NCBI GenBank assembly: GCA_043732185.1
Contig: JAYTHY010000034.1
Span: forward strand, 1-38,339
Direction: 5' to 3'
DNA: 38,339 bases
Source: Fibrobacteria bacterium
GTDB taxonomy: Bacteria; Fibrobacterota; Fibrobacteria; UBA11236
The notes below the pieces were generated by a model. That model was given only the letters and a program-made list of their open reading frames with translations. It did no database searches and had not been told where the DNA came from. Position numbers and translations under genes: made by a program. This document shows positions 1-25,437 of the stretch, in pieces; position 1 is the stretch's first letter; every line of letters begins with the position of its first letter.

Positions 1-7
1 TTTAAGT

Positions 8-31: not shown

Positions 32-452
32 CGAATTGGACCACTCCGGGTTGAAGATTTTTGAATTAATGTTGTGAAAAATATTTCCTCCCGGGTTTAT
101 TAAAGAAAACAAAACAAAGTAGGATTTCGGATGAGAATTTCGGCTAAACCACCAAACGGCTTATCTTTAGTAGTGAGACATCGCGTAGATTAGAAGGATA
201 TCAGACCCGAAATCACCTTGCCAGTCCGTTAACATCGAAACAGGGTACCCGTTTAGCCAAAAAGCACAGAATTCCTCACCTCGAAATTAACCGTTGGCTC
301 TAGACTAGGTTTTTAGCCTACCATTTGACCTACTATCGAGGACAAAAAATCCTTTAGGAAACGCGCCCTTGTCTCATCGGTTTTGGATTCCCTGTGTCAG
401 GGCTCCAGGTTTGGATTCAGTACCTCTATTCATAGCTAATGCCAATCGCACT

Positions 453-490
453 ACTTAACAACCACCGACTTTAGTCGGTGGTTGTTAAGT
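453..490. repeat. Perfect 18-bp inverted repeat (hairpin) resembling REP or IS200/IS605 ends
   Basis: ACTTAACAACCACCGACT (453-470), TT, AGTCGGTGGTTGTTAAGT (473-490) are exact reverse complements. The sequence is intergenic and has no U-tract. Confidence 0.8.
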
Positions 491-649
491 GCCAAACTCG
501 AAGGGATGCCGGGCGAAAGAGGCGATTAAAAGCCTCCAAATGGAAAAATGAGTTGTTCGCTTGCGCCCTAGCCTCGTCATTATGTATCTTAGCACCAGGA
601 CTCTCACCCGCACAATACATGGCCTGCGTCCGGAAAGCAGCCCACCATC

Positions 650-1294
650 TTGAAGCGTACCCTATTCGTACTTCACACTAAAATAACCAAAGATTTTTCC
701 CAGGGTGAATTCGAAGCGAAGCTTGCCGAAATTCCCGAGTCGATGCAGGCAGCATGCCTGAAATACAAATCCAACAAAGATAGGCAGGCCGGACTGGTTG
801 GAAAATTGCTTCTAATGGTAGGTTTGCGGCGTTTAGGCCTTGGCGAAACCGCATTGGCGGACCTCAGTTATAACCGATTTGGAAGACCTTACCTACCTGG
901 AAAAATCGATTTCAACATTTCCCACTCCGGAAATTGTGTTTTGATCGGTATCGGAACAGAGATGAAAATAGGCGTCGATGTGGAAAAAATCCGACCAGTG
1001 GAAATCCTGAACTTTGGAAATGCGATACCTGAAAAGCAATTGAGGCTTATCCTCTCCGCTTCCGATCCCCTGAATTCTTTCTTTGATTATTGGACAAAAG
1101 TGGAATGCGTCCTAAAAGCTGAAGGAGGAGGCTTTTCCATTCCTCCAAAATCCATCACTTTTCTGGGAGCAATGGGTTTTTGCGGTGATTCGGTATGGCA
1201 TCTAAAACCGCTCCAGCTTGGCACGGATCTCTGCGCCCATGTGGCTACGGACGCAAATAATTTTGGGATCGAAGGTGAATTCGTGCCGCTCTAG
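650..1294 (+). CDS. Sfp-type 4'-phosphopantetheinyl transferase
   Basis: Motifs FGRPYL, FNISHSG, IGVDVE and FFDYWTKVECVLKAEG (WxxxExxxK). TTG start; adjacent to a PKS. Confidence 0.92.
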   Translation: MKRTLFVLHTKITKDFSQGEFEAKLAEIPESMQAACLKYKSNKDRQAGLVGKLLLMVGLRRLGLGETALADLSYNRFGRPYLPGKIDFNISHSGNCVLIGIGTEMKIGVDVEKIRPVEILNFGNAIPEKQLRLILSASDPLNSFFDYWTKVECVLKAEGGGFSIPPKSITFLGAMGFCGDSVWHLKPLQLGTDLCAHVATDANNFGIEGEFVPL

Positions 1295-1355
1295 CCCAAG
1301 TCCACGTTCATATTTCGGAATAGATGGAATCCTTTTGGTTGATCATCAGATTCCC

Positions 1356-2585
1356 ATGTGTTATTTTTCGCAAGTGCCCGCACCGCAAAATTCTGCCACC
1401 AATATCCAGTCGAATGATTTCGACGTTGCCATCATTGGCGCCGGTCCAGCGGGACTCATGGCCGCGCTGACCTTGGCACAATCTCGCCAGGATTGTAAAG
1501 TGATTCTTTTAGATAAGAAGGATCCCTGGCGGGAACCGGTCGCATGTGGGGAAGGCGTCAGCAAAAGGGGACTGGGAATATTTTTCAATTCGATTCCGGA
1601 AACCTGGATCCGTGGTTCAGTCGATGGAGTACTTTTCGTATCGCCGGACGGTACGAAAGTCAGATTCAGCAAACCTGGAATCGGTCTGATAATCAATCGA
1701 GCCGCAATGCAAGACGAGCTGGCAAAGAAATGCGCCACGCTTGGAGTCGCCTGCGATTTCCGGGCTCGCGTACATTCCGTAGAGTCGAGTGGCCTTTCCG
1801 GTCACACAGTGCGCATGGAAGGGGCTACCCCAAGGGTATTTCGGGCAAGAATTGTAATCGACGCCAGTGGGCCGGGGAGCAGGTTTGGAAATGCACTTTC
1901 CAATCCCGATTCCGTCGATCTGGAGCCGTCCACCTTCGCCCTCGTTCGCGGTATACGATTCCCAAGCAATTACATCCAGCTTTTTTTCGGCCAATCCATC
2001 GCTCCCGGGGGGTACGGTTGGCTTTTTCCGCGCGACAGCGAGGTCGCCAATGTTGGAGTGGTTGTTGGGCGGACCTTGTTCAAGAACGTATCTTCACGGA
2101 AAACCTTGATAGACTTCATCAACCGGTTCTTCCCTGGTTCGCAAATCGACTTGATGCACGGAGGTGCCATCCCATGCTCTGGCTCTGATATCCCTCCCAT
2201 GGCAGTTGGCGGATTGTTCAAAGCCGGTGACGCGGCTTCAACGGTGCACCCCATCAGCAGGGCGGGAATCCTGGAAGCAATGAAAAGCGGTTCGTTGGCA
2301 GCAAAAGGGGCCCTCCAAGCACTTGTTGCCCAGACTGAAGCTGAGAGGGAAGAAATTTACCGAGCGTATCGCGAAGGGTGGCTTGCATGTTATGGACGTT
2401 CGCATATGAGAAATAGGAAAGCCAAGCCGGGGTTTTCCACCCTGCCGGATAAGCTCCTCAACCGCGCTGCGCATAGACTTGCGAAGTCATCGGACGAAGA
2501 TATGCCATTGTCCAGAATATTCCTGACTACCCTTTGGTCATCACCAGGCCTGCTCTGGAGGATGAAGAGCCTTTTCTCTGGTTAA
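1356..2585 (+). CDS. Geranylgeranyl reductase family FAD-dependent oxidoreductase
   Basis: DVAIIGAGPAG Rossmann motif, ACGEG, IDASG, PGGYGWLFP, NVGV and GDAA..HPISRAGI. The ORF track starts at 1218, overlapping the PPTase; ATG 1356 or GTG 1374 is more plausible. Confidence 0.85.
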   Translation: MCYFSQVPAPQNSATNIQSNDFDVAIIGAGPAGLMAALTLAQSRQDCKVILLDKKDPWREPVACGEGVSKRGLGIFFNSIPETWIRGSVDGVLFVSPDGTKVRFSKPGIGLIINRAAMQDELAKKCATLGVACDFRARVHSVESSGLSGHTVRMEGATPRVFRARIVIDASGPGSRFGNALSNPDSVDLEPSTFALVRGIRFPSNYIQLFFGQSIAPGGYGWLFPRDSEVANVGVVVGRTLFKNVSSRKTLIDFINRFFPGSQIDLMHGGAIPCSGSDIPPMAVGGLFKAGDAASTVHPISRAGILEAMKSGSLAAKGALQALVAQTEAEREEIYRAYREGWLACYGRSHMRNRKAKPGFSTLPDKLLNRAAHRLAKSSDEDMPLSRIFLTTLWSSPGLLWRMKSLFSG

Positions 2586-2592
2586 CTCCGTT

Positions 2593-3102
2593 TCAGGCTG
2601 GCGGTAGATTATACCGGGTTACCAGAGACCTGACTCTTGCCTCGTAATTCTTAAGGTCAAGACCGTCTGCATTCAGGCGCATCCTTCCTAAAAAATGCAT
2701 CAATTCGTTCGAGTGTGGGGTTGATTTCCCTGTGCTAAGAGAAATATATCTGAATTCCGTCCAGATCACCGACTTCAGGTTCCGTCCGTCCGTCCGCAAC
2801 ATAACCCCCTCCATCATCAGTGAGTTCTCCGAAAAATGGAGTAAACTGGTCCGGATGCGAACCTCTTCCCGAAATGCGACAGGCGCGAAATAGGAAATCT
2901 GATGCTGAGTAATAACCCAGTTGCATCGGGTTTCCTTGCCCATTTTATAAATATCAAAATCGTAATGCTGAACTAATTGGTCCTCGCGCGCATTTATGAA
3001 GTAGTCGATAAAGCGGGCATTATTCAAGTGTCCAAAAGGATCGCAATCCTGAAAACGGATAGTTACGATGCTTTCTGTTTCCTTGTCTGTATCATTTACC
3101 AT
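2593..3102 (-). CDS. Hot-dog fold acyl-CoA/acyl-ACP thioesterase (4HBT/YbgC/FadM family)
   Basis: IRFQDCDPFGHLNNARFIDYFINARE signature; 169 aa; AAGGA upstream of the start. Confidence 0.9.
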   Translation of the reverse strand: MVNDTDKETESIVTIRFQDCDPFGHLNNARFIDYFINAREDQLVQHYDFDIYKMGKETRCNWVITQHQISYFAPVAFREEVRIRTSLLHFSENSLMMEGVMLRTDGRNLKSVIWTEFRYISLSTGKSTPHSNELMHFLGRMRLNADGLDLKNYEARVRSLVTRYNLPPA

Positions 3103-3309
3103 TTGTTAACCATCCTTTTCAATTCTCATATCCAATCGCCTTGACTGCCATGCCGGACTATATTACCTGCTAAACAGGCCGCTAGCTAAATCCAAGTTGA
3201 ATGTCAATATCCAATGATCACCATTTTTAGTGGTGCTTGAAATCCCACGGATTTTATTAAATATACAATCTCACAGTCAATCCTTCAAAATTTTACAGCA
3301 GGAATAGTA
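3103..3309. promoter_or_regulatory. AT-rich divergent promoter region between the thioesterase and the AT-ER/PKS operon
   Basis: 207-bp AT-rich non-coding gap between divergent starts, with AGGA RBS before ATG 3310. Exact -10/-35 elements were not assigned. Confidence 0.5.
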
Positions 3310-5658
3310 ATGAAGATTCTGCTTTTCCCAGGACAAGGCAGCCAAAAAAAGGGGATGGGCGGGGCCCTATTCAATGATTATAAGTTCGTAACCGAAGAGG
3401 CTGACGCGATTCTGGGTTACTCAATCGCGCAACTCTGTCTGGTGGATCCCGACGGGCGCCTGAACCTGACCGAGTTTACGCAACCTGCGCTCTTTGTCAC
3501 CAACGCGCTTTCCTATTACCGTTACCTGGATAATGGCAATCCGGTTCCGGATTTGGCAGCGGGGCACAGCCTAGGCGAATACAATGCCTTGTTGGCGGCA
3601 GGCGTTCTAAGCTTTGGGTCTGCTTTGAAACTCGTCCAGGCGAGAGGGCGGATCATGGCGGAAGCTAAAGGTGGATCGATGGCCGCGGTGGTCGGAATAC
3701 CCGCAGGCGAAATTGAGGCTTCGCTCCTAAAAGCAGGTTTGACTGGAGTAGACATCGCAGCCTACAACGCTCCTTCCCAAATCGTCCTTTCGGGCCTGGA
3801 AGCGGACCTGCGGAAATGCCGCACCCTTTTCGAGACCGGATTCCCCAGGGCATTCCTGCCTCTCGCCGTTAGCGGAGCGTTCCATTCCAGGTATATGGAA
3901 TCGGCACGGACTCTTTTAACGCCCATCCTCGACGCCTGCGAATTCATGGCTCCCCGCTTTCCCATAGTATCAAACGTACTTGCCAAACCGCATTGGGTGG
4001 GTGAATCCCGCCGACTCCTGTTGGACCAATTGACCCATCCAGTTCGCTGGACGGAGAGTATGCAATACGCATTTTCCAAGGGAATCGAGAACGCCATCGA
4101 AATCGGTCCGGGCCGGGTCCTCTCGAATCTGTTCCAAAAGAGCAAAGCCTCATTTGATACGGCGTTGCGACCGATTCCCGTTTGTACCTCCGAACCAATG
4201 CAATCGGCCAATTTACAGGATGGGTTGTCACTGGATTCGACTGCGCTTGGGGATCAAGAGTTCAAACTTGATTACGGACTAAGGTTCGCTTATGTGGCCG
4301 GCCCGATGTACCGTGGAATCTCATCGGAAGAGATGGTGATAAGGCTCGGCCAAGCCGGACTGATGGGATATTTTGGCACAGCCGGCTTGGAGATGGACCG
4401 CGTTCACAAGGCTATTATGGCAATCCAAGCCGGACTCCGTCCGGGTATGGCCTTTGGGATGAATCTTCTATGCAATTTGGCGGAGCCATGGATTGAGGAA
4501 GAGACTGTGGAGGCCTTCCTATCGCATGGAATCCGGAACATTCAAGTTTCTGCCTATATGAGCATGACACCTTACCTGGTATTACTCCGCATTAAGGGGA
4601 TAACCAAGGATTCAAACGGCATGGTACGCACGAGGACGCGCATCCAGGCGAAACTGTCCCGGCCGGAAGTCGCCGCCGCCTTTCTGGCTCCGGCTCCTGC
4701 CTCGATGATCGCAGCCCTTGTCTCCAAGGGGAAGCTTTCCGTCGTAGAAGGCGAGTTGGCCATGGAAATTTCCATGGCGGACGACATCGTGGTGGAAGCT
4801 GATTCAGGCGGCCACACAGACAGACGCAACCCCCTGACGCTGTTCACCTCCATCAGAGAGTTGCGAGACGAAATGCAGCGGAAATACGGCTATCCTAAAA
4901 AAGTCAGGCTGGGGGCTGGCGGCGGCATTGGAACCCCGGAAGCGGCGGCCGCATCTTTCATCATGGGGGCCGATTTCATTTTAACCGGTTCCATCAATCA
5001 GTGTTCCGTAGAAGCGGGAACCAGCGATCTCGTAAAGGACATGCTTTCCGGAATGAATATCCATGATACGGAGTATGCTCCGGCCGGGGATCTTTTCGAA
5101 TTGGGATCCAAGGTCCAGGTTTTCCGCAAAGGGGTGCTATTTCCGGCCCGAGCGAACAAATTGTACGACATTTACCGAACCCACCAATCCCTTGAGTCGA
5201 TCGACGAACACACCCGAAACCAAATCGAGAATCGCTATTTCGGCCGCAGCTTTAAGAAGGTATATGAAGACATCCGGCAATATTACCTGGTAAAGCGACC
5301 GAAAGAAATCGAAAAAGCCGAAGCTAATCCGAAGCACAAAATGGCGTTGGTCTTCAAATGGTATTTCGCCCATTCCTCCCGAATCGCTATGGCTGGGGAC
5401 CCCGATCGGGTGGCCGACTTCCAAATCCATTGCGGTCCGGCACTGGGGGCCTTCAACCAGATGGTAAAGGGCTCTCCCCTGGAAAATTGGAAAAATCGGC
5501 ACGTTGACGGGATAGCGGAAAAGATCATGTTCGGTGCGGCTGAAATCCTTTCGCAGAGGTTTGCCACCTGGTGGCCCAAGGCGAGCGCAGTCAAGAATTC
5601 CAATGTTTTAAACAATGGTCCGGAATCGCGGAAACCACAGCCCGAGGCAATTTCATGA
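3310..5658 (+). CDS. Trans-acting malonyl-CoA:ACP acyltransferase fused to a PfaD/FabK-type enoyl reductase (PksE/BaeE-like AT-ER)
   Basis: AT: FPGQGSQ, TQPAL, GHSLGEY, GAFHS (malonyl type), PVRW, EIGPG. ER: YVAGPMYRGISS, AKLSRPEVA, VEADSGGHTD, GGGIGTP, TGSINQ, FPARANKLY, QIHCGPALGAFN. Confidence 0.95.
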   Translation: MKILLFPGQGSQKKGMGGALFNDYKFVTEEADAILGYSIAQLCLVDPDGRLNLTEFTQPALFVTNALSYYRYLDNGNPVPDLAAGHSLGEYNALLAAGVLSFGSALKLVQARGRIMAEAKGGSMAAVVGIPAGEIEASLLKAGLTGVDIAAYNAPSQIVLSGLEADLRKCRTLFETGFPRAFLPLAVSGAFHSRYMESARTLLTPILDACEFMAPRFPIVSNVLAKPHWVGESRRLLLDQLTHPVRWTESMQYAFSKGIENAIEIGPGRVLSNLFQKSKASFDTALRPIPVCTSEPMQSANLQDGLSLDSTALGDQEFKLDYGLRFAYVAGPMYRGISSEEMVIRLGQAGLMGYFGTAGLEMDRVHKAIMAIQAGLRPGMAFGMNLLCNLAEPWIEEETVEAFLSHGIRNIQVSAYMSMTPYLVLLRIKGITKDSNGMVRTRTRIQAKLSRPEVAAAFLAPAPASMIAALVSKGKLSVVEGELAMEISMADDIVVEADSGGHTDRRNPLTLFTSIRELRDEMQRKYGYPKKVRLGAGGGIGTPEAAAASFIMGADFILTGSINQCSVEAGTSDLVKDMLSGMNIHDTEYAPAGDLFELGSKVQVFRKGVLFPARANKLYDIYRTHQSLESIDEHTRNQIENRYFGRSFKKVYEDIRQYYLVKRPKEIEKAEANPKHKMALVFKWYFAHSSRIAMAGDPDRVADFQIHCGPALGAFNQMVKGSPLENWKNRHVDGIAEKIMFGAAEILSQRFATWWPKASAVKNSNVLNNGPESRKPQPEAIS

Positions 5659-8600
5659 AATCAGAATTCAATCTCCATATTTCGGAAACAGACTTCGATA
5701 CGGCCGGACATGTCGTGCAAAACTGTGTCCTGTATCCGGCAGTCGCCTATCTGGGGTTGGTGTGGAATTGTGAAAAGGATCTCCGCCGATCCTGGCGCGA
5801 AAAGGGAACGTGCCTGACTTGGTCGGAAGCCTATTGGTGGGCGCCCATGGAGCCTGGAGAAAGGGGAACGGGAATACGGATCGAAACGGAACGGATTGCG
5901 AATGGGACCGCATATCGCGTCTGGTCCGAAAAACCGAATGCTGCGGGTCCGTTGGCCACTGGAGTGATCGGCATATCCGAATTGGAGCCTAAGCGGTTTC
6001 CGTTCCTGGATATTGCATCGATTCGAAATAGCGCTGTATCCCGGCTGGATAAAGAGGAAATTTACTCCGCGTTTTCCCGGCACGGAATCCGGTATGCGGG
6101 ACGGTTCAAATGCATCGAGGAAATCCATTTCGGCGAAGGCGGTACGTTGGCCAGGTTGAAAACCAACAGAGGCGACGGCGGCTCTCCCTGGGACGTTTGC
6201 GCGCTGGATGGAGTCATGCAAACTTTCCTGATGACGCTCCTGGAACACCAAGGGGAAAGGGAAATGTACGTACCCTTCTCCCTCGGCACGTGGATTTTCC
6301 ACGGGCCCATGCCCGGCGATGCCTTCATCTATACGATCCGCTCTTCCACACACCCCCAGGATGGGGAATTCCGCTTCGACGCGATCATCACCGATACCGA
6401 CGGAAAAAGTGTAGCGACACTCGATGGCCTGTGCGTGCGAAGCCGCAGCGTCACCGATTCCGCACTGCCTGCAGGAGACGCGAAGCGGATATGCATCGCA
6501 TCCTCTTTCACTTCGGAGCCAGTCCGGGAACCACTGTCGTTCTGGATGGCAAAAATGAACGGCACGATTCCGGAAATCGTATTCGCCCCCTACAACCAGG
6601 TTTTCCAGACCCTACTCGATCCCTCCGGTCCCTTCGCCAACGGCAGCTCAGGACTCAACCAGGTTTTCATCCGGTCAGAGGATTTGCTGGGACCGGAGGG
6701 GCTCCGGGACACCGAGCTTATGGGAAAGGAAAAGGACGCCCTGCTCGACGGTAAGGAACGGCACACCCTTCCAAACGGCCTTGAGATCGCCCATTCCAAT
6801 CTTTATGAAACAAGGTATCTCTATGAAGAGATTTTCGTGGAAAAAACTTATCTGAAGCATGGAGTAAACCTAGGCGACGGGGACGTCGTCATCGACATCG
6901 GTGCCAATATCGGAATGTTTTCCCTGTTCGTTGCGCGGGAGTATCCAGGCTGCACCGTGTTCGCCTTCGAGCCTTCTCCCGCCACCTTCGAGCTTCTCTC
7001 GGCCAACGCACGGATTCATGCGCCCGGCGTTCGTCCCTGCCCGTGGGGGATTTCCGGTGAAGATGGGGATGCCGAGTTCACCTTTTACGAGCGCTCTTCG
7101 GTGTTTTCCGGTTTCCATTCCGACATTGCCAAAGATACCGAGGCGATTCGGAGTGTGGTGGAAAACGCTATCCGGTCGAGAACGGCTCTTTCCGAGGAAT
7201 CCATGACCGAGCATGTGGATCAACTCATGGAAGGACGGCTCGCAAGCAAATCCATCCGGTGTCCCATCAAAAAGCTATCCACGGTTTTCAGGGAACTGGG
7301 CATAACGCGAGTGGACCTGCTCAAGGTGGATGCGGAAAAGTCGGAATGGGGAGTGCTGGTGGGCATCGACCCCGCCGACTGGGACATGATCCGTCAGGTC
7401 GTCATCGAGGTGCACGGCGAGGATGCCGGACTGGCGGAAAAAGTGATTGGCTTTCTCTCGCAAAAAGGATTTGAGGTTATACACGGAGAAGAAGGAGCCT
7501 TGTCAGGAAGCGGCTTAAGCAATCTCTACGCACGTAGAAAATCGGAACTTTCCGCTGATCGGCCATCGATTCTGCGCGACAGAGTAAGCAGGAATCTCGC
7601 AGAGCTTGAATCAGCGCTCCACGTCTCTGCTGCGCGGGATAAAGCTCCCCTGTTCCTCTGCGTATGTCCTCCCTCTCCCGCCTTCCGTGATTCCGTCCAT
7701 GCGGAATTTATCGATCGGCTCGAGACCCGCTTGGTCGGGAGGCTGAATTCCTCAGGTACGATCCATGCCATCAAGGCTTCAGATTTCGCGGATCGGTATC
7801 CCTTCCGCAGCTACCACGACTCGCTTCGGGACGCGATGGGCCACATCCCGTATACCCCCAGGTTTTTCAGTATATTGGCCACGCTAGCCGCCAGAAGGGT
7901 TTATGGAGTTTCCGGCAGGGCCTTCAAAGCGATAGCTTTGGATTGCGACCAGACCCTTTGGAAAGGTATCTGCGGTGAGGAAGGGGCGAAAGGAGTGAAG
8001 ATCGAATCCGCCCAAGCACTCCTGCAACGGTTGATGGCAGATTTACAAGCGCAGGGTATTCTGCTATGCCTGCTGAGCAAAAATAATCCCGATGACGTAT
8101 TCCAGGTATTCGGACACAACGAGGATATGATCCTCAAGCTCGATCAATTCGCGGCCCACCGGATCGGATGGTCTCCGAAAGATGAGGGCATCCGCAGAAT
8201 GGCGGAGCAATTGAACATCGGCCTGGAAAGTTTCATATTCCTGGACGACAGCCCGCTGGAATGTGCCGCGATGAAAGCCAAATGTCCCGAAGTCCTTACC
8301 CTCCGACTGCCCGATAGGGATTCCGACATCCCCGGATTCCTTCGGAACGTCTGGCCCTTCGATTTATGGACCGTATCCGAGGAAGACCGGTCAAGAAACC
8401 GGAAGTACCGGGAGGAATCCATGCGAAACTCCCTGCGAGAAAGCACGACGAGCTTGCAAGAATTCTTGGACAGTCTGGAAGTCCAGGTCAGGTTCCAAAC
8501 CGCGGCGGATAGCCATATCGCCAGAATCTCGCAACTTACCGCCAAGACCAATCAATTCAATTTCACAACCCTCAGGCGCAATGCCTCGCAAATCGATGCT

Positions 8601-11600
8601 CTGCTGAAGGATCCGGCGTTCGGAGTCCGTATCGTGCACGTTACCGATAGGTTCGGGGACTACGGAATCGTGGGCCTAATCATCTGGCGGGAAGAGGGGA
8701 AACGCCTGATCGCGGACACGGTACTGCTGAGCTGCCGGTCGCTGGGCCGGGGAGTCGAGCATCGCATGATCGCGGAACTGGGACGCTTGGCGATGGAAAA
8801 AGGGATGGTTGAGTCCTTGCTTCCGTTCTCCTCTACGGCCAAAAACGAACCTGCCCGTGCGTTCCTTGCCTCCATCGGAAAGGGCGCAATCACCGGCTCC
8901 CCGGACGACCCGCCACTGGTTTTCCCATCGGCTTATCTAGCGTCTCTGACGTATTCACCCGAGGAAGCACCGGCCGCCGGGAAGAGTGCGGATCGCCATG
9001 GCCCGGATCAGGCCGGTTTGGCCGGATACTCCGCGTCCCTGCCCGCGCTAGGCACCTCATTCCATGAAGTTGTATTGGATTTGCGAGATCCGGATGTCAT
9101 GCTGCTCACCATGAATGCCGGCTTGCTTGACGCTTTTGGGGGGAATGCCAGCTCCGGGCATGCGGAACCGTCGGAGTTTTCGGACAATCCCGCCATTTGC
9201 TACCTCAACCGAATTTTTACGGAAATTCTTCGTCCACAACACCCCTTGCCGGCAGAGGGAGCCGGTTTCGATCGACTGGGCCTCGATTCCATGCGGATCA
9301 TTGAAGTGCTCGGAAGAATGGAAAATGACTTCGGCAAGCTTCCTAAAACCCTGCTTTTCGAATACCAGGACGTGCAATCCCTTGCCGGTTACCTTCTGGA
9401 AAAGTATCCGGATACCTTTAAGCGTTTAAGCCAGGATGACGCAAATGCGGCAGGTACGCCAAGGCTCAATATCGAGGCAATGGGCCCGGAGGAGTTGTCC
9501 GCATCCGGGGCGGCGGAGTTTGTCACTGGTAGGCAGGACATTGCCATTGTAGGCATGTCAGGCCGATATCCCCTGGCGCCTGATCTTGAAAGATTTTGGA
9601 AAAATCTTTTGGAGGGAAAGGATTGCGTACGCGGTCCGGGAGACCGCCGCGGCTTCCATCGGTTTCAGGATCCGCGGGAACCACTCCAACCGGTTGGGTA
9701 TACTGATCAGGGCGGATTCCTGGACGATGTGGAATATTTCGATCCCCTATTCTTTAACATCTCGCCCGCGGAGGCGGAGAGGCTGGATCCGCAGCAAAGG
9801 CTTTTTCTGGAAGAGGCTTGGCATACCCTGGAAGACGCCGGATATGTCTGGAGCGAAAGAGAATCAGATGTCGGTGTTTTCGTCGGAGTCATGACCAGCA
9901 CCTACGGCCTGGTGGGATTGGAAGCGTCCTTGCGCGGCAGCTCCTCCCTTCCCGATTACGATCATTACGAGATCCCAAACCGCGTTTCCTACTTCTTCAA
10001 CTTCAACGGACCCAGCATGGCCGTTGACACGGCTTGCTCCTCCTCCCTCACCGCCTTGCACCTGGCTTGCGAAAGCATTCGGCGTGGTGAATGCGGATCG
10101 GCCTTGGCCGGCGGGGTGAGCCTCATCTTGCATCCTAGCCGGTATGCCCAGTACTGCGCCAAGAACATGCTCTCTCGGGACGGCCGGTCCAAAGCTTTCG
10201 GCGCGGAAGCCAACGGCTTTGCCGACGGCGAAGGCGTCGGTTGCGTTTATCTCAAGTCCCTCCAAAAGGCCCTTGAAGACGGGGATCGAATTCACGGGGT
10301 CATCCGAGGCAGCGCTATCAATTCCGGCGGCAGGACCAGTGGATTTACCGTTCCCAATCCCAAAGCCCAGGAAAAAATGATCCGCCGAGCCATCGAGAAT
10401 GCGGGCCTGGACCCAAGGACCATCACATACCTTGAGGCTCACGGTACGGGGACGATTCTCGGCGATCCAATAGAAATAAAGGGATTGGCGAACGCGTTCT
10501 CTCACTTCACCGGGGAAAAGGGCTTCTGCGCAATGGGTTCCGTCAAATCCAATATCGGCCATTTGGAAGCCGCAGCGGGCATCGCCGGTTTGACCAAGGT
10601 GCTTTTGCAGATGCGCCATCGAACGCTCGCTCCTTCGCTCCATTGCGCGGTCCCCAACCCCGCCATTGAATTCGGAGAGACGCCTTTCCGCCTGCAACTG
10701 CAAGCGGAGGCTTGGTCACGGTCCCGGGCTTCGTCCATTGAATCATTTAAGGAAATCCCCCTGCGAGCTGGAATCAGTTCCTTCGGCGCCGGAGGCTCCA
10801 ATGCGCACGTGATCGTCGAAGAGCCGCCGTTCCCCAAGGCCGGGAAGAACACTCCCGCCGGAATCAGCCGCATATTCGTTTTGTCCGCCAAAACGGAAAG
10901 CGCCCTCAAACGCAAGCGGATAGATCTGGCAAACCACCTACGAAATGGGACTACCATCGATTTGGCCGACCTTTCCTTTACACTCAATTGCGCCAGGGCA
11001 CATTTCGATCGCCGCATTGCATTCATCGCCAAGGATGCCGAAGGATTGCTTATGGCTTTGGACGCAACGGATCAAGTCTCCGGACCGACCGTATACCGCA
11101 AAACGGATTCCGGAAATGCTCCCGTTAACGGATTTCCCACGGAACCATTGAACGATGAATCCAATCTGCGGAAGCTCGCGGAATTTTTCGTTTCCGGCGG
11201 AAACCCGGATTGGAGGTTTTTGTATAAAGACTCGGAAGGCCGAATAATTTCCCTGCCCCCTTATCCGTTCGAAATGATCCGATGCTGGATCAACGTCGCG
11301 TCTCCCGTACCAGACGCGGCCGCCGTAAGTGAATGGCCGGATAGAGTCGATATCGAAACCGGTACCACCCCGGCCCGCGAGGCACTGGTGGGCGCTCCGG
11401 AGGTGCATAGCGACGCACCGGACCCAGATAGGCAAATCGCGATAATCGGAATTGCCGGCGTTTTTCCCGGCGCAGCCGACGTACGCGAGTTCTGGGCTAA
11501 CCTGGCGGAGGGCCGCGACATGATCCGGGAGGTTCCGCCGGACCGCTGGAATTGGAAGGATTATCCGGACTCCGCTCCCAAGGAGGCCGACAAGACAGGT

Positions 11601-14600
11601 ATCCGCTGGGGAGGGTTCCTGGATGACCTGGACAAATTCGATCCCTTGTTTTTCGGAATTTCGCCCAGGGAAGCCGAACTGATGGATCCGCAGCAGAGGA
11701 TTTTCCTCGAGACGGTTTGGAACGCCATCGAGGACGCCGGATATAAGGCGTCCGATCTCTCCGGAACCGATACGGGCCTCTTCGTCGGCGTCGCCGGAAT
11801 CGATTATTTCGAAATGATGGCAAGGCAGGGGACCGAAATTTCCGCGCACACGTCCACAGGCATGGCCCATTCCATACTTGCCAATCGCATTTCCTATCTC
11901 CTCAATTTCAGTGGACCGAGCGTGCCGATCGATACCGCCTGTTCCAGCTCCCTGATTGCCATCCACCGCGCCGTGGAATCAATCCGAAAAGGCCGGTGCG
12001 GCCTCGCCATTGCCGGAGGTGTGAATGCGCTTATTAGCCCCACCATGTCCGTTTCCTTCGGCAAAGCCGGCATGCTGAGTCCGGAGGGCCGATGCCGGAC
12101 CTTCGACAGCCAGGCCGACGGATACGTCAGGGGTGAAGGGGCCGGAGCCCTGCTCCTCAAGCCTTTGGACCAGGCCATCGCTGACGGCGATTCCATCTAC
12201 GCGGTGATCAAAGGAAGCGCGGAAAACCACGGTGGCCGGGCCAATTCGCTTACGGCCCCCAATCCTTCCGCGCAAGCCGACCTGTTAGTCGAGGCCTATA
12301 TCGCCGCTAAGGTCGACCCGCGTACGGTCGGTTATATCGAAGCGCATGGTACCGCTACCCGGTTGGGGGATCCCGTGGAAATTAACGGTATGAAAAAGGC
12401 GTTCGAGCGCCTCTACGCATTGCGGGGACTGGACGCGCCTGCTTTTCCACATTGCGGTATCGGCTCGGTGAAGACCCACATTGGGCATCTTGAAACCGCG
12501 GCCGGCGTCGCCGGAGTGATCAAGGTGCTCATGTCCATGAAACACGCTACGCTGCCGGCCAACCTGAATTTCAGGAATCTGAATCCTTTCATCAAGCTCG
12601 AAGGCAGCCCTTTTCGCGTGGTGGACCGAACCCGGCCTTGGGAACGGTTGCTGGACGATGTTGGAGAGCCTTGCCCCAGGAGGGCGGGAATCAGCTCTTT
12701 TGGTTTCGGCGGCGCCAACGCGCATCTGGTCCTGGAAGAATATATCCCGAAAAAAACCGAACTGAACCCGGTTCTACTCGACCTTCCGCAAGCGTTCAAT
12801 CTCTCCGCGAAGAAACCGGATCAATTGCTTGCGCAAGCGCAGGGTTTACTCGAATTCTGCCAATCATGGAGGGCTTCAGGGGAATCCTCAGGCGAGGCTG
12901 ACTTTATGCGGGAGATGGCTTATACATTGCAGGTTGGCCGCGAGGAAATGGAGGAGAGGGTTTCCATTCTGGCGGAAGACTTGGAAAGCCTCATGTCGAC
13001 CTTGGGGAGGTTCTCCCGAGGAGAAAAAAATCTGGAGGGCGTTTTTCTCTCTAAGGGCAAATTTACCCGCAAGGAATGGGCCGTCCTTTTAGAAGGACGC
13101 GCAGGGGCGGAATTCCTTCGAGCCTTGGCGGCGGATCGGGAAATCGGACGCATCGCGAGGCTTTGGGCAGAAGGCGTCAATATCCCTTGGAAAGAAATGT
13201 ACGGAGCGTCGCGTCCAAGGCGCATATCGCTCCCGACTTATGCCTTCGCAAGGGAAAGGTATTGGATCCTTCACCCGGCGGGAAAACCGGTAAAGACCGG
13301 AAACGGAACCGAAGTGGGAATTGTCGGCCTCCATCCCTTGCTGGATTCCAACGAATCCGGATTGGATAAAGTTCTATTCCGCAAGCGGTTCCTTGGGAAG
13401 GAATTCTTCCTCCGTGATCATATCGTATGTGGCAAGATGTTCCTCCCCGGAGTGGTGTACCTAGAAATGGCGCGCGCCGCATGCTCGCTCGCCAATCGAT
13501 CGGAAGAACCGGTACGCCTGTCGAACATAATCTGGCAAAGGCCATTCGTGGCCTCCGAAAATGGAAAGGATGTGCTTGTCAGCTTGGTCCGCCACGGTCA
13601 GAAGGTGAAATTCAAAATCGTTGACGGGGAAGACCCTGAACACGTATTCTGTTTTGGTGAGACGGAAACTATTCCCGCGCCTACCGCTATCACCGCCATC
13701 GATCTCGACGCCATCCGTAATCGCTGCACCCTTCGCCGCAGAGGCGAGGAATGTTACGGAAACTTCGGAAAAATCGAGTTGGAATACGGACCTGCGTTTC
13801 GTTCCATCATGAACCTGGACGGTAACGAACGGGAATGCCTGTCCGAATTGGAATTTCCGACTTCGGTGAAATCGGAATCAAAAGGTTTCCTTCTTCCCCC
13901 TTCCCTGCTTGATGGCGCCTTGCAATCGGTTATGGGCCTGCTCTGGAATTCCTCGGAAGAGAATGTCGGCCTGCATCTGCCCTACGGACTCACGGAGATC
14001 GAAATCCTGTCACCGATTCCGGAACGATGCTTCGCCTATGCCACTTGGGCCGGGCCGAACCGGCCCGGGAACGGAAACACACTGGGCTTCGATATACTCC
14101 TTGCCGATGCGCGCGGAGCGATCCTGGCAAGCCTGAAGAATTTTACGGTGAGGCCGCTCAATCCGCAAGCCACGGTCATACCGTCCTCAGCGATTGCCGG
14201 GGGCGCACCGGGGGCGGAACTCTCTGTGCTCTTTTTGCGGAAAACCTGGGTGCTGGAAGCTCTTCCATCTCCTGCAAGGGATCCTGGCTCCGTTTTGGTA
14301 TTCGCGCCAGCAACAGCGCGCGCGGTTGGCGGCGGATGGGAATCGACTTTTCAAAAATCGTCCGGCACTGGTCGGGTCATTGTGGTCTACCCCGGAACAG
14401 GATTCCGCGAGATCGGGCCCGGCACCTATGAGATCCATCCCGCCGAGGCAGTGGACTACAGCAGTCTATTGGATCGATTGGCCCTGGATAATGAATTCCC
14501 CGCAACCATAGTCGATGCGCGCGCCGTTTCCGAGATGCCGGGAATCGGAAATGCTGAAAATTCCTTCGATCCCCTGATCGACCACGGTTTTCAGCCCCTG

Positions 14601-16331
14601 TTCCTCCTTTGCCAGGCGCTGCTTAGAAAAAGCACGAGCATTCCGTTGCAGGTCATCCACGTGCATTCGCCACGGGGAGACGCAGCAGGACTCCAAAACA
14701 AAGCCTTGATGGGATTCTCCAAGACCGTGTCGAAGGAGAACCCCCGGATTTCCTTGAAAATCCTGGAAACAGGTTTCGTATCCATTCCCGAAGGATTGGC
14801 GAGCGCATGCCTGGAGGAAGCCCGCAGCATCGGGTCCGGAGAAATCCGCCTTCATGAAGGAAGACGCTGGATCCGGAAATTGACCGAGCTGGGGGACTGT
14901 CCCGCCCACGGTGGTTTTCCGGCCACGATCCGCGAGCGCGGAGTATATCTCGTCACCGGCGGACAGGGAGGATTGGGCCGCTTGTTCGCGGAGCATTTCG
15001 CAACCGAAGCCCGGGCGCGATTGGTGCTCACGGGCCGGTCGCCAGAAACCCAGGAAACCCGCTGGCTGCTCAATAGGCTGCGCTCCCTTGGAGGAGAAGG
15101 CATCTATATTCCTTGCGATGTGGCCGACCTGGGGGAGACCCTGAAACTGGCGGAAACGTGCAGAAACAGATTCGGAGGGGTGGATGGAATCGTCCATGCC
15201 GCGGGAATCATCCGCGACGCCTATATCATCAAAAAGGACGTTTCCGATCTCAAGCGGGTTCTCGCCCCCAAGGTGCAAGGCACGATAAACCTGGACCAGG
15301 CCTTTGCCGGTGATAATCTGGCTTTCTTTTCGCTTTTTTCCTCCATCACTGGTGTCATGGGGAATGCGGGCCAAGCCGACTATTGCTTCGCCAACGGTTT
15401 CATGGACGCTTTCGCTGAATGGCGAGAACACTTGCGGAAACGGGGCGCGCGTAGCGGCAGAACCCTGTCCATTGGATGGCCGCTTTGGAAAGAAGGCGGT
15501 ATGCGCGTCGTTCCTGCCATTGAAAAAATGCTGGCCTCCACCACCGGGATGTCGCCTTTGCCGACCCCGCAAGGAATCGCGGCGTTCTTCAAATGCCTGG
15601 CATCGGAGGAGTCCTCCATTACCGTCGCGGCGGGCCTAGGACCCAAGCTAAAGGGAAGCCTGGGCGCTGATTGGGAACCCTTTGCGTCCCCGGAGCCTTT
15701 CCATCCTTCCCCGCCGCCACCCTCCGGCCCGGCCATGGTTCCCCATGAACATCAAGGTCTTGACCGGGAAGTCCGATTCATGGCGGCATCCATTCTCAAA
15801 CTCGATCCGGACCAATTGGAAGTGGATATGCCTCTGGGTGATTTCGGATTCGATTCCATCAGTCTTACCGAACTGGCCAATCGGGTCAACGACCGGTTCA
15901 AAACGGATCTGACTCCCGCCGTCTTCTTTGAACACGGTACCCTGGCGTCTTTCCAAGACCACCTTCGAAAGACACTAAGCACTACTCGCGATTCCCCACC
16001 CCTGTCAAATACTCCGACCCAACCGCCAGTGTCGGTGGCTCCCAAAGAGGACACAGGACGAGAAGTACTACTCATCGCATGCGACATCCTTAAGATCCAT
16101 GCAGAACAGATCGATTGGGAATCTCCCCTGAGCGATTATGGCTTCGACTCGATCAGCCTTACAGAACTGGCTAACCGGGTAAATGACAGGTTCGGCCTCG
16201 ATTTGACTCCCGTCGTCTTCTTCGAACACGCTACTTTGGATTCGTTCGTCCGGTTCCTGGACCGTGAATTCGGTCCCGGCTTAGCCGGAGCCGGGAAACC
16301 GGGTAAAGTAATTTTCCATGAAGGTATTTAG
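5655..16331 (+). CDS. Trans-AT type I polyketide synthase, 3558 aa: DH-FkbH(N)-FkbM MT-FkbH-ACP-KS-KS-DH-KR-ACP-ACP
   Basis: ATG 5655 overlaps the AT-ER stop (ATGA). DH: HVVQNCVLYP and DGVMQ. FkbM: DIGANIG and LLKVDAE. FkbH: DCDQTLW, FLDDS, SCRSLGRGVE. ACP: GLDSM (~9279). KS1: DTACSS (10026), HGTGT, GHLEAA. KS2: DTACSS (11931), HGTAT, GHLETA. DH: HIVCGKMFLP and DGALQ. KR: GGQGGLG, HAAGIIRD, GQADYCFAN. Two ACPs with GFDSI. No AT or TE domain. Confidence 0.95.
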   Translation: MKSEFNLHISETDFDTAGHVVQNCVLYPAVAYLGLVWNCEKDLRRSWREKGTCLTWSEAYWWAPMEPGERGTGIRIETERIANGTAYRVWSEKPNAAGPLATGVIGISELEPKRFPFLDIASIRNSAVSRLDKEEIYSAFSRHGIRYAGRFKCIEEIHFGEGGTLARLKTNRGDGGSPWDVCALDGVMQTFLMTLLEHQGEREMYVPFSLGTWIFHGPMPGDAFIYTIRSSTHPQDGEFRFDAIITDTDGKSVATLDGLCVRSRSVTDSALPAGDAKRICIASSFTSEPVREPLSFWMAKMNGTIPEIVFAPYNQVFQTLLDPSGPFANGSSGLNQVFIRSEDLLGPEGLRDTELMGKEKDALLDGKERHTLPNGLEIAHSNLYETRYLYEEIFVEKTYLKHGVNLGDGDVVIDIGANIGMFSLFVAREYPGCTVFAFEPSPATFELLSANARIHAPGVRPCPWGISGEDGDAEFTFYERSSVFSGFHSDIAKDTEAIRSVVENAIRSRTALSEESMTEHVDQLMEGRLASKSIRCPIKKLSTVFRELGITRVDLLKVDAEKSEWGVLVGIDPADWDMIRQVVIEVHGEDAGLAEKVIGFLSQKGFEVIHGEEGALSGSGLSNLYARRKSELSADRPSILRDRVSRNLAELESALHVSAARDKAPLFLCVCPPSPAFRDSVHAEFIDRLETRLVGRLNSSGTIHAIKASDFADRYPFRSYHDSLRDAMGHIPYTPRFFSILATLAARRVYGVSGRAFKAIALDCDQTLWKGICGEEGAKGVKIESAQALLQRLMADLQAQGILLCLLSKNNPDDVFQVFGHNEDMILKLDQFAAHRIGWSPKDEGIRRMAEQLNIGLESFIFLDDSPLECAAMKAKCPEVLTLRLPDRDSDIPGFLRNVWPFDLWTVSEEDRSRNRKYREESMRNSLRESTTSLQEFLDSLEVQVRFQTAADSHIARISQLTAKTNQFNFTTLRRNASQIDALLKDPAFGVRIVHVTDRFGDYGIVGLIIWREEGKRLIADTVLLSCRSLGRGVEHRMIAELGRLAMEKGMVESLLPFSSTAKNEPARAFLASIGKGAITGSPDDPPLVFPSAYLASLTYSPEEAPAAGKSADRHGPDQAGLAGYSASLPALGTSFHEVVLDLRDPDVMLLTMNAGLLDAFGGNASSGHAEPSEFSDNPAICYLNRIFTEILRPQHPLPAEGAGFDRLGLDSMRIIEVLGRMENDFGKLPKTLLFEYQDVQSLAGYLLEKYPDTFKRLSQDDANAAGTPRLNIEAMGPEELSASGAAEFVTGRQDIAIVGMSGRYPLAPDLERFWKNLLEGKDCVRGPGDRRGFHRFQDPREPLQPVGYTDQGGFLDDVEYFDPLFFNISPAEAERLDPQQRLFLEEAWHTLEDAGYVWSERESDVGVFVGVMTSTYGLVGLEASLRGSSSLPDYDHYEIPNRVSYFFNFNGPSMAVDTACSSSLTALHLACESIRRGECGSALAGGVSLILHPSRYAQYCAKNMLSRDGRSKAFGAEANGFADGEGVGCVYLKSLQKALEDGDRIHGVIRGSAINSGGRTSGFTVPNPKAQEKMIRRAIENAGLDPRTITYLEAHGTGTILGDPIEIKGLANAFSHFTGEKGFCAMGSVKSNIGHLEAAAGIAGLTKVLLQMRHRTLAPSLHCAVPNPAIEFGETPFRLQLQAEAWSRSRASSIESFKEIPLRAGISSFGAGGSNAHVIVEEPPFPKAGKNTPAGISRIFVLSAKTESALKRKRIDLANHLRNGTTIDLADLSFTLNCARAHFDRRIAFIAKDAEGLLMALDATDQVSGPTVYRKTDSGNAPVNGFPTEPLNDESNLRKLAEFFVSGGNPDWRFLYKDSEGRIISLPPYPFEMIRCWINVASPVPDAAAVSEWPDRVDIETGTTPAREALVGAPEVHSDAPDPDRQIAIIGIAGVFPGAADVREFWANLAEGRDMIREVPPDRWNWKDYPDSAPKEADKTGIRWGGFLDDLDKFDPLFFGISPREAELMDPQQRIFLETVWNAIEDAGYKASDLSGTDTGLFVGVAGIDYFEMMARQGTEISAHTSTGMAHSILANRISYLLNFSGPSVPIDTACSSSLIAIHRAVESIRKGRCGLAIAGGVNALISPTMSVSFGKAGMLSPEGRCRTFDSQADGYVRGEGAGALLLKPLDQAIADGDSIYAVIKGSAENHGGRANSLTAPNPSAQADLLVEAYIAAKVDPRTVGYIEAHGTATRLGDPVEINGMKKAFERLYALRGLDAPAFPHCGIGSVKTHIGHLETAAGVAGVIKVLMSMKHATLPANLNFRNLNPFIKLEGSPFRVVDRTRPWERLLDDVGEPCPRRAGISSFGFGGANAHLVLEEYIPKKTELNPVLLDLPQAFNLSAKKPDQLLAQAQGLLEFCQSWRASGESSGEADFMREMAYTLQVGREEMEERVSILAEDLESLMSTLGRFSRGEKNLEGVFLSKGKFTRKEWAVLLEGRAGAEFLRALAADREIGRIARLWAEGVNIPWKEMYGASRPRRISLPTYAFARERYWILHPAGKPVKTGNGTEVGIVGLHPLLDSNESGLDKVLFRKRFLGKEFFLRDHIVCGKMFLPGVVYLEMARAACSLANRSEEPVRLSNIIWQRPFVASENGKDVLVSLVRHGQKVKFKIVDGEDPEHVFCFGETETIPAPTAITAIDLDAIRNRCTLRRRGEECYGNFGKIELEYGPAFRSIMNLDGNERECLSELEFPTSVKSESKGFLLPPSLLDGALQSVMGLLWNSSEENVGLHLPYGLTEIEILSPIPERCFAYATWAGPNRPGNGNTLGFDILLADARGAILASLKNFTVRPLNPQATVIPSSAIAGGAPGAELSVLFLRKTWVLEALPSPARDPGSVLVFAPATARAVGGGWESTFQKSSGTGRVIVVYPGTGFREIGPGTYEIHPAEAVDYSSLLDRLALDNEFPATIVDARAVSEMPGIGNAENSFDPLIDHGFQPLFLLCQALLRKSTSIPLQVIHVHSPRGDAAGLQNKALMGFSKTVSKENPRISLKILETGFVSIPEGLASACLEEARSIGSGEIRLHEGRRWIRKLTELGDCPAHGGFPATIRERGVYLVTGGQGGLGRLFAEHFATEARARLVLTGRSPETQETRWLLNRLRSLGGEGIYIPCDVADLGETLKLAETCRNRFGGVDGIVHAAGIIRDAYIIKKDVSDLKRVLAPKVQGTINLDQAFAGDNLAFFSLFSSITGVMGNAGQADYCFANGFMDAFAEWREHLRKRGARSGRTLSIGWPLWKEGGMRVVPAIEKMLASTTGMSPLPTPQGIAAFFKCLASEESSITVAAGLGPKLKGSLGADWEPFASPEPFHPSPPPPSGPAMVPHEHQGLDREVRFMAASILKLDPDQLEVDMPLGDFGFDSISLTELANRVNDRFKTDLTPAVFFEHGTLASFQDHLRKTLSTTRDSPPLSNTPTQPPVSVAPKEDTGREVLLIACDILKIHAEQIDWESPLSDYGFDSISLTELANRVNDRFGLDLTPVVFFEHATLDSFVRFLDREFGPGLAGAGKPGKVIFHEGI

Positions 16332-16380
16332 TCGTGGCTACCAGTTACCGGACGGACAGAGTCAGAGGTGCCGCCCCCGA

Positions 16381-16815
16381 TTATATCCCTTTAAGAAACC
16401 GTTTCACCCTGCGAACGATGAAACCAAGGATCGGAAGATTCTCATAGGCTAGCTCACCCAAATCGAAGTATTCGCTGAACCGGATGACCTTGTCCTCCGC
16501 ACCTCCAAACTCGAGCCATGTGGAACCCCTCAAGGGTATTTCCTGCTGCATATTAAGCTTGGAATGGCGGATTAAAGCGGTCCACTGCACAGACACCTGA
16601 CTGCCTTCCACAATTATTGGGCCAAATTCATATTGAATCTTCGAGATATGTTTGAAAAATCGCACATAATGGTGACCCAAGCTTACCCGCCCAGAGCCTT
16701 GGCCCAGAGGATCAGCGAACTCTACCTCTGGATCATAGAATGAGTCGATAAGAGAGAGGGTATCCTTATTCAGCGCGGAAAAAAAAGCCGTTGCCCTCCG
16801 GCCGTACTCATGCAT
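16381..16815 (-). CDS. SnoaL-like / NTF2-family protein
   Basis: FYDPEVEFADPLG..G at the N-terminus and KVIRFSEYFD near the C-terminus; 144 aa; GGAGGTGG RBS upstream. Confidence 0.85.
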   Translation of the reverse strand: MHEYGRRATAFFSALNKDTLSLIDSFYDPEVEFADPLGQGSGRVSLGHHYVRFFKHISKIQYEFGPIIVEGSQVSVQWTALIRHSKLNMQQEIPLRGSTWLEFGGAEDKVIRFSEYFDLGELAYENLPILGFIVRRVKRFLKGI

Positions 16816-17272
16816 TTATCCACCTCCATGGAACCAAATTGGGAACGTATCCAAGTGGAAAGATAATGCCAAAATGCTTCAATTGGCTCACTAGTGCCAT
16901 TTCTTAATCCTGAGATGGTGAGTTCTCTAGCAGCCGTTGTTGAAATAATTGCCATGGTGAATATTCAACTTTGGCTAAAATTCCTAAGGGTACATGATTT
17001 GGTCGGAATCCAGTTTCTTTCCCTCCTTAAACATCGGCACAATCCGGAAACCAGTTGCAAGGGCCTTGCTACTAGCAACCCTATCTCCTTTTTTAAATTC
17101 GGTTCAACAGTCATTACCGCTGGATCGTAAAAGATTGCATCAGCCCTTCGAAGTTAAAAGCGTAGTCCCGAACTCAAAAAAAATACATTCTAGGAGGTTA
17201 TTTGTGTTGGTATTATCCCTTTGCCGTTTTATCGTTAACAGGTTTGAACCTTTTGCTCAGGATGTATAACGT

Positions 17273-25420: not shown

Positions 25421-25437
25421 ATACGATTCTCCTCTGT

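Follow-up and report, generated by a model that had tools for sequence, protein, structure and literature searches.

We analysed a 38,339-nucleotide (nt) stretch of DNA from a Fibrobacteria bacterium (contig JAYTHY010000034.1 of assembly GCA_043732185.1; hereafter the window, which presumably is the whole contig) that carries a polyketide synthase (PKS) locus of the trans-acyltransferase (trans-AT) type near its left end. This compact locus of approximately 16 kb and six genes is real and well formed. The open reading frame (ORF) list and the Pfam and NCBIfam searches place the six genes at positions 650 to 16815, exactly where an initial annotation, made from the letters of the sequence, had put them. 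The genes, together with one intergenic region, are the following:

650–1294, plus strand: Sfp-type phosphopantetheinyl transferase (PPTase), with start TTG at 650 as listed (Pfam AASDHPPT_N, 9.5e-8; ACPS, 7.2e-6)
1356–2585, plus strand: FAD-dependent oxidoreductase of the geranylgeranyl reductase (GGR) family, in an ORF open from 1218; likely start ATG at 1356, alternative ATG at 1239
2593–3102, minus strand: hot-dog thioesterase of the 4HBT/YbgC/FadM type (Pfam 4HBT_2, 6.8e-18)
3103–3309, no strand: divergent intergenic gap between the thioesterase and AT-ER genes, rich in A and T (37% GC), the presumed promoter region
3310–5658, plus strand: AT-ER, a free-standing acyltransferase (AT) fused to a PfaD-family enoyl reductase (ER) (TIGR00128 FabD, TIGR02814 pfaD_fam)
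5655–16331, plus strand: PKS of 3558 amino acids (aa), start ATG at 5655, stop codon at 16329–16331
16381–16815, minus strand: SnoaL_2 (NTF2-like) protein (Pfam SnoaL_2, 3.1e-12), convergent with the PKS gene and 50 nt past its stop

The PKS has the domain order DH-FkbM MT-FkbH-ACP-KS1-KS2-DH-KR-ACP-ACP (DH, dehydratase; MT, methyltransferase; ACP, acyl carrier protein; KS, ketosynthase; KR, ketoreductase). Domains were assigned by Pfam on the full ORF and on nine overlapping pieces of it, and FkbH and FkbM by NCBIfam models:

5655–6614, plus strand: DHn, the N-terminal DH-like domain (PKS residues 1–320; Pfam PS-DH, 2.5e-18)
6792–7574, plus strand: FkbM-family MT (residues 380–640; Methyltransf_21, 3.7e-15; TIGR01444, 78.6 bits against a cut-off of 37.7)
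7632–9074, plus strand: FkbH, a HAD-IIIC phosphatase or glyceryl loader (residues 660–1140; TIGR01686, TIGR01681)
9192–9419, plus strand: ACP0, the loading ACP (residues 1180–1255; PP-binding, 3.2e-8; LGLDS motif)
9522–11294, plus strand: KS1 with its flanking subdomain (residues 1290–1880, of which the KS is 1290–1670; Pfam ketoacyl-synt, 1.7e-83; Ketoacyl-synt_C, 5.5e-42; RhiE-like linker), ending in LPPYPFEMIRCW
11412–13274, plus strand: KS2 with its flanking subdomain (residues 1920–2540, of which the KS is 1920–2310; ketoacyl-synt, 2.5e-94)
13317–14189, plus strand: DH (residues 2555–2845; PKS_DH_N, 3.6e-21; PS-DH, 8.7e-23; HIVCGKMFLP and LDGALQ read)
14337–15524, plus strand: KR, structural and catalytic halves (residues 2895–3290; Beta-ketacyl_N, 1.2e-21; KR, 6.4e-50)
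15807–16274, plus strand: tandem ACP1 and ACP2 (residues 3385–3540; two PP-binding stretches, 4.4e-37; GFDSISL in both)

No Acyl_transf_1 match was found in the 3586-aa ORF listed for the PKS or in its nine pieces, which leaves the KS modules without an AT in line; the free-standing AT fused to the ER is of the malonyl type (GHSLG and GAFHS motifs read). Both observations support the assignment to the trans-AT class. The initial annotation was equally right that there is one PKS with exactly two KSs, no thioesterase (TE) domain and a clean stop followed by a convergent gene: ACP2 is followed by an 18-residue tail and the stop codon, and Pfam detected no Thioesterase, Abhydrolase, Condensation or NAD_binding_4 match in the protein. 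The PKS carries three ACPs, one for loading and two C-terminal, in a 10.7-kb reading frame that is unbroken over its 3558 aa. Read by eye and taken in their usual meaning, the motifs of the AT, the thioesterase (DPFGHLNN), the second DH and the nucleotide site of the KR look intact, as do the serines of all three ACPs. With two KSs and one reductive loop, and with the other genes carrying no PKS domains, the window holds less than a multimodular assembly line. We moved the start codon of the PKS from the GTG of the 3586-aa ORF to ATG 5655. This ATG shares bases with the stop of AT-ER (ATGA), is preceded at 7 nt by GAGG and encodes the Met to which the N-termini of relatives align. The AT-ER and PKS genes are predicted from this overlap to be translationally coupled.

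The most unusual part of the PKS is the junction between its two KSs. The flanking subdomain of KS1 ends in LPPYPFEMIRCW; the roughly 50 residues from there to KS2 lack the serine motif of a carrier protein, and no PP-binding match at E≤0.01 lies between KS1 and KS2. Both KSs keep Cys-His-His (DTACSSS, HGT and GH motifs), and both are followed by RhiE-like and CurL-like flanking subdomains. We compared this arrangement with 240 fetched proteins, in which domains were located by phmmer with the window's own domains as probes, so that other domain types are invisible. Overall, 36 of 598 KSs had no ACP detected since the preceding KS. The gap measured 411–1565 residues in 32 of these and at most 255 residues in only four. 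Two of the four, P0207 (237-residue span) and P0137 (205), were discarded as apparent tandems, having by eye an ACP-like segment between their KSs. This left the window PKS and the 5113-aa protein P0196 as the only direct KS-KS tandems among gaps of up to 255 residues; a direct tandem of two seemingly intact KSs is rare.

P0196 shares an ACP-KS-KS-DH-KR-ACP block with the window PKS. The two are collinear from ACP0 into the DH, at 43% identity over at least 1701 aa and 49% across the 1171-aa KS1-KS2 region, and both tandem KSs of P0196 have Cys-His-His with no ACP between them. It differs in having one ACP rather than two at the end of the block and no FkbH loader in front. Inside the PKS there is no high-identity repeat of at least 20 nt that could have collapsed, KS1 and KS2 being 72% identical in DNA over 136 nt. 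Because P0196 is collinear and no long internal repeat exists, the junction is probably neither an assembly artefact nor a chance deletion private to this protein, and seems to be a conserved, transferable unit. Module 10 of OzmH, a trans-AT PKS of oxazolomycin biosynthesis, likewise contains two adjacent KSs; the triad of the first is mutated to Cys-Asn-His, and this KS is considered redundant (PMC9057759). The window differs in that both KSs have Cys-His-His. When a tandem KS without an ACP was engineered into a trans-AT PKS, product was still formed (PMC11260071).

Upstream of the junction, the FkbH (TIGR01686) and FkbM MT domains lend domain-level support to the earlier proposal of a glycerate-derived, O-methylated starter. 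FkbH scored 289 bits with TIGR01686 (cut-off 146.65) and 57.5 with TIGR01681 (cut-off 35.75), its DxDxT residues D763, D765 and T767 are invariant across the 12 sequences of our loader alignment A1, and it lies directly upstream of the carrier protein ACP0, as in an FkbH-type loading module. Among relatives bearing the DHn domain, His19 and Pro28 are kept in nine of nine and Asp185 with Gln or His at position 189 in eight of nine. Since DHn has the conserved His and Asp and stands before the MT, a dehydrated enol-ether starter would be expected rather than O-methylglycerate.

An FkbH-ACP pair also opens the glycerate-loading lines of the suomilide/dysinosin nonribosomal peptide synthetases (NRPSs), the phormidolide trans-AT PKS and bryostatin BryA, and an FkbM-type MT ahead of FkbH is shared with the MT-FkbH loaders of suomilide/dysinosin and other aeruginosin-family NRPSs. 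The bryostatin BryA loader is DH-KR-FkbH-ACP, with a DH in front of FkbH. Unlike these loaders, the one in the window has a DH-like domain preceding the MT, and its best identity to any loader is 42%. For suomilide it is proposed that FkbH loads glycerate, which is methylated afterwards (PMC8609519), and for the phormidolide trans-AT PKS an O-methyltransferase and a domain resembling FkbH are listed in a review (PMC7600079). Literature searches for FkbH, trans-AT and FkbM together returned only two figure legends.

With PKS residues 1–1300 as the query, a search of 5.8 billion clustered proteins similar in length gave P0003 as the best loader match, at 41% identity. A second search, of 1.84 billion representatives without restriction on length, gave the 42% mentioned above as its best match, and nothing exceeded 46% among the matches listed. 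The loader is, on these identities, divergent. Cyanobacterial NRPS matches cover 62–78% of the 1300-residue query and have an FkbM domain listed, and tblastn against plasmids returned 172 records, all below 60% identity and none covering 80% of the query. Many loader relatives measure only about 1230–1340 aa (for example P0246–P0255, P0258 and P0260–P0264) and align from query position ~70–280 to ~1080–1150. At this size there is no room for anything beyond the loader, so it seems to be widespread as a separate gene too. Seven PKS relatives (P0003–P0009) have the order DH-MT-FkbH-ACP followed by a KS.

The two KSs were typed on a tree of our own (FastTree, LG, midpoint-rooted, all 598 KSs included) rather than by formal TransATor assignment, and the comparison set, having been gathered by relatedness to the window PKS, is biased. 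KS1 falls in a 12-leaf clade (support 0.96) that also includes the leading KS of the tandem in P0196. Of the 11 other members, eight lie directly behind an FkbH-ACP loader, against 17 of 596 KSs overall; an FkbM MT was detected in one of these eight loaders, and two of the eight proteins start at or near FkbH. Among the 50 best-scoring relatives of KS2, 31 follow DH+KR modules (161 of 596 overall), and the wider tree clade of KS2 is weakly supported (0.44).

The genes around the PKS form an accessory set that is unusual in combining a GGR-family flavoprotein with a hot-dog thioesterase. The flavoprotein had been called a flavin reductase, a label that did not survive: it is a GGR-family FAD enzyme, scoring 159.2 bits with TIGR02032 (geranylgeranyl reductase family), barely over the cut-off of 158.8, and 3e-14 with Pfam GGR_cat, with GAGPAG and GYGWLFP motifs present. 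Its nearest solved structure is 3oz2, an archaeal digeranylgeranylglycerophospholipid reductase (E 1e-25), and 3atq also matches (E 5e-20). We set aside a halogenase reading of the same gene in favour of the GGR family, the halogenase matches being weak (Trp_halogenase 22.5 bits; CmlS 31.9 against a cut-off of 900). A literature search found no co-mention of geranylgeranyl reductase with polyketide synthase gene cluster and enoyl. For the PPTase, the NCBIfam HetI and AcpT matches are weak and under cut-off.

Hot-dog thioesterases are used for release in polyunsaturated fatty acid (PUFA) and secondary-lipid systems, and the one encoded here is a candidate chain-release enzyme. Its PDB matches are thioesterases (2cye, 5byu, YbaW and YbgC), and its TIGR00051 score of 45 bits is under the cut-off of 68.7. 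A literature search on hot-dog chain release in trans-AT systems brought up nothing that is drawn on here. The flavoprotein and thioesterase genes are convergent, with 7 nt separating their stop codons (2585–2593). Given this orientation, the thioesterase gene should have its own promoter, located in the gap at 3103–3309 and divergent from that of the AT-ER/PKS operon. Two promoter-like minus-strand sites lie in the gap, but scan counts over positions 1–17500 were no better than in shuffled sequence, for promoters (13 sites against 10.9 expected) as for terminators (11 against 22.9). The SnoaL_2 protein has no NCBIfam match and no PDB sequence match at E≤0.1, and the place of its gene in the cluster is uncertain.

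The interpretation that we favour, although with a confidence slightly short of even, is a compact and probably complete trans-AT PKS locus making a short, methoxy-capped unsaturated carboxylic acid. In the proposed pathway, the PPTase would activate the three ACPs, and FkbH would load ACP0 with a glyceryl unit donated by a phosphoglycerate. DHn would then remove the 3-hydroxyl and the FkbM MT cap the 2-oxygen, giving a 2-methoxyacryloyl (enol-ether) C3 starter; with DHn idle, the starter would be 2-O-methylglyceryl instead. KS1 would accept the starter and join it to the malonyl unit borne by one of the C-terminal ACP pair, after which KR and DH would convert the product into a 2-enoyl C5 intermediate. 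The enoyl-type KS2 would take the chain back for one more extension on the tandem ACPs with the same KR and DH, the two KSs sharing one reductive loop and one ACP pair. The result would be a C7 methoxy-polyenoyl thioester, some double bonds of which may be saturated by the trans ER, the GGR-family flavoprotein or both, and the hot-dog thioesterase would hydrolyse it to an acid of seven carbons plus a methyl. The short product of about C7 suggested in the initial annotation agrees with this arithmetic (C3+2+2=C7), but only if each KS acts once.

Several features speak for completeness: PPTase, AT-ER and thioesterase are all encoded within the locus, its final module lacks nothing, what follows is a convergent gene and then 22 kb of unrelated sequence, and the left flank is non-coding. 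The favoured reading also draws on the domain order and intact motifs, the unbroken frame, the conserved KS-KS junction, the clade of KS1 and the nearest relatives of KS2, and the engineered tandem KS is a precedent for it. The closest working analogy is the 9-hydroxynonanoate branch of mupirocin biosynthesis (MmpF, MmpB, MacpD and partners), likewise a trans-AT system with an oxygenated C3 starter and two KSs. These KSs extend the C3 starter with shared beta-keto processing enzymes and several ACPs; there the starter is 3-hydroxypropionate from malonyl-CoA rather than an FkbH-derived glycerate, the parts are distributed over several proteins in a 74-kb cluster, and MmpF iterates (PMC10098928).

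If complete, the locus would be among the smallest working trans-AT systems (about 16 kb and six genes) and easy to express. It would offer a simple test bed for what a DH-MT-FkbH loader makes, for whether an ACP-less tandem of two intact KSs carries out two ordered extensions on one loop, and for how a hot-dog thioesterase frees a chain from a trans-AT line. A bolder generalization, which we regard as unlikely, takes KS1-KS2-DH-KR-ACP-ACP as a natural unit of two ketosynthases and one reductive loop that performs two programmed extensions per module and, together with the DH-MT-FkbH loader, amounts to a self-sufficient synthase of 16 kb, situated beside conjugation genes, whose product is a short polyene acid capped by an enol ether. 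Two condensation-competent KSs of differing substrate preference would use the KR, DH and ACPs in a fixed order, the first KS having no ACP of its own. The KS-KS block is the part of the locus that most deserves experiment, and whether such a tandem performs two ordered extensions bears directly on current work to engineer trans-AT PKSs by exchange of KS-bounded units.

A number of observations weigh against a complete, self-contained locus, and many of them suit a rival explanation that we consider a substantial possibility, though not a probable one: that the PKS is the first part of a larger trans-AT line, its tandem ACPs handing the chain to a KS off the contig, encoded before position 1 or at another place in the genome, with the thioesterase having an editing or unrelated role. 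All PKS relatives of the loader and of the KS-KS block sit in larger lines. P0003–P0009 all continue beyond their first KS with more domains, and no TE is listed for any of the seven, so that in those proteins the loader starts larger assembly lines. P0008 is a partial record; the remaining six hold at least two KSs each, four of them ending in KS, DH or KR, whereas P0007 and P0009 end in segments that our probes could not name. The homologous KS-KS block of P0196, unlike that of the window, lies in the interior of the protein, with KR, ACP and a further KS after it. Among 136 multi-KS PKS proteins of the comparison set, 19 end in an ACP and a short tail without TE; as this ending is common in multi-protein lines, the clean stop proves nothing. 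The locus has no TE domain, transporter or regulator. The contig ends 650 non-coding bases upstream of the PPTase, and further PKS genes could therefore lie beyond it.

Genome comparison did not bring a second such locus to light. We scanned 185,579 species genomes with patterns from the MT domain of alignment A1 and kept 80 of 389 confirmed loci, with flanks of up to 10 kb, in which accessory homologues were sought by tblastn (E≤1e-5). None of the 80 loci contained a GGR, hot-dog thioesterase or SnoaL homologue, and none resembled the six-gene set; a PPTase match was present in three, and short AT-ER matches (127–341 aa, 26–36% identity) in 26. A literature search on small or iterative trans-AT PKSs yielded no comparable mini-cluster. 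Finally, we infer what is made, how the chain returns from the ACPs to KS2 and what part the thioesterase, ER and flavoprotein play, and from this contig alone the self-contained status of the cluster is unproven.

Other evidence disfavours a larger line. PKS genes normally continue directly downstream of a loading-module gene. Here, the convergent SnoaL_2 gene is followed by 22 kb of conjugation-type and surface-protein genes without any PKS gene, all on the minus strand and unrelated to polyketides. Upstream, positions 1–649 contain neither an ORF of at least 100 aa nor one that is cut by the end of the contig. The final module is whole and closes with ACP-ACP, in contrast to the four of six non-partial loader relatives that stop at KS, DH or KR. 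Should the PKS nevertheless prove to be the head of a larger line, the locus would be an orphan cluster fragment of the ordinary kind, in which a single module is of a rare type.

The KS tree adds a further point against the favoured reading. The first KSs of the seven DH-MT-FkbH relatives make up seven of the ten leaves of a different clade (support 0.956) from that of KS1, so the window PKS looks mosaic. KS1 may thus not be the native partner of the DH-MT-FkbH loader, and the pattern suggests recombination near ACP0, between the loader (5655–9419) and KS1 (9522–11294). Such a signal would also fit a non-functional remnant, in which a recent event joined the loader of one lineage to the KS-KS block of another and a mobile element cut it off; conjugation genes do adjoin the locus, and with a best loader match of 42% among the 1.84 billion representatives there is no close relative, so that conservation of the locus as a whole cannot be shown. 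We nonetheless find decay very improbable. The 10.7-kb frame has no internal stop, every catalytic motif that we checked is intact, AT-ER and PKS appear translationally coupled, and the KS-KS block itself is conserved in P0196. GC content at third codon positions (GC3) is 0.61–0.66 in AT-ER and the PKS and 0.55–0.62 in the conjugation genes, with no sharp break between the PKS and its neighbours (the last PKS slice was taken out of frame, which permutes its three codon positions).

The initial annotation had also described the accessory genes as PUFA-synthase-like and, as its second option, had proposed an iterative system. In common with PUFA and secondary-lipid synthases (PfaA-E), the locus does have tandem ACPs, an ER of the PfaD family and a PPTase dedicated to it. 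However, TIGR02814 is defined for PUFA and polyketide systems alike and so does not discriminate between them. AT-ER scored 287 bits with TIGR00128 FabD (cut-off 260.9) and 645.7 with TIGR02814 (cut-off 449.25), yet its best 120 relatives (47–56% identity, many phyla) are ordinary AT-ER or AT-AT-ER proteins, and those bearing names are called ACP S-malonyltransferase or trans-AT PKS acyltransferase/oxidoreductase. Since KS1 and KS2 both keep the Cys, they are not a pair of KS and chain-length factor (CLF). No FabA match was found, the DH domains matching PS-DH and PKS_DH_N in Pfam; there is no in-line malonyl-acyltransferase (MAT), and the tandem ACPs number only two. The PfaA model (TIGR02813 omega_3_PfaA) reached 96.1 bits against a cut-off of 1010.1, on the free-standing AT only. 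The PUFA likeness thus fails, and on its domain content the system is not a PUFA synthase.

Iteration itself would mean that KS2, or both KSs, reuse DH-KR-ACP-ACP many times and build a long-chain, methoxy-terminated lipid. The tandem ACPs, the trans ER, the lipid-type C=C reductase family of the flavoprotein and the hot-dog thioesterase would all fit a fatty-acid-like product, and some transfer from the ACPs back to an upstream KS is needed in any case, as one reductive loop serves two KSs. Programmed iteration by a trans-AT system is known from mupirocin MmpF (PMC10098928). We give this explanation little credence: it lacks the Cys-less CLF, FabA-type DH, in-line MAT and PfaA match, AT-ER is of the generic trans-AT type, the same KS-KS block occurs in the ordinary multimodular P0196, and nothing in the sequence would set the chain length.

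The non-coding leader at positions 1–649 is AT-rich (GC 0.44). At 455–488, upstream of the PPTase gene, it holds an inverted repeat whose 15-bp arms match perfectly around a loop of 4 nt (TTAACAACCACCGAC / GTCGGTGGTTGTTAA). The repeat is followed by no T-run on either strand and is hence not a typical terminator; it could be a candidate protein-binding site.

On the other side of the locus, three features stand out:

21545–24034, minus strand: VirB4/TraC-type ATPase (P-loop_TraG, 4e-25; TraC-F-type 196 bits, under cut-off)
25438–25821, minus strand: TrbC/VirB2 pilin, part of a conjugation-type run at 17273–25821
26170–37764, minus strand: 3864-aa ORF with a PGAP1-like alpha/beta-hydrolase segment (residues 206–253), DUF2341 and LamG matches, and weak Ig-like matches

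Four overlapping ORFs of 408, 1020, 353 and 117 aa, none of which matches a Pfam or NCBIfam family, flank the ATPase and pilin genes, and look-alikes of the VirB4 protein are scattered across Cyanobacteriota, Bacteroidota and Pseudomonadota. A conjugative element may carry the PKS locus as cargo or simply lie beside it. The contig has neither relaxase nor integrase, megablast of both window halves against 72,556 plasmids gave no match, and the contig gave no sign of circularity (no terminal overlap and no 12-mer common to both ends). Scans of the window for tRNAs and Rfam families returned nothing. The 3864-aa protein has its hydrolase segment near the N-terminus and Laminin_G_3 (1.5e-15) and DUF2341 near the C-terminus, and looks like a giant surface or secreted protein.

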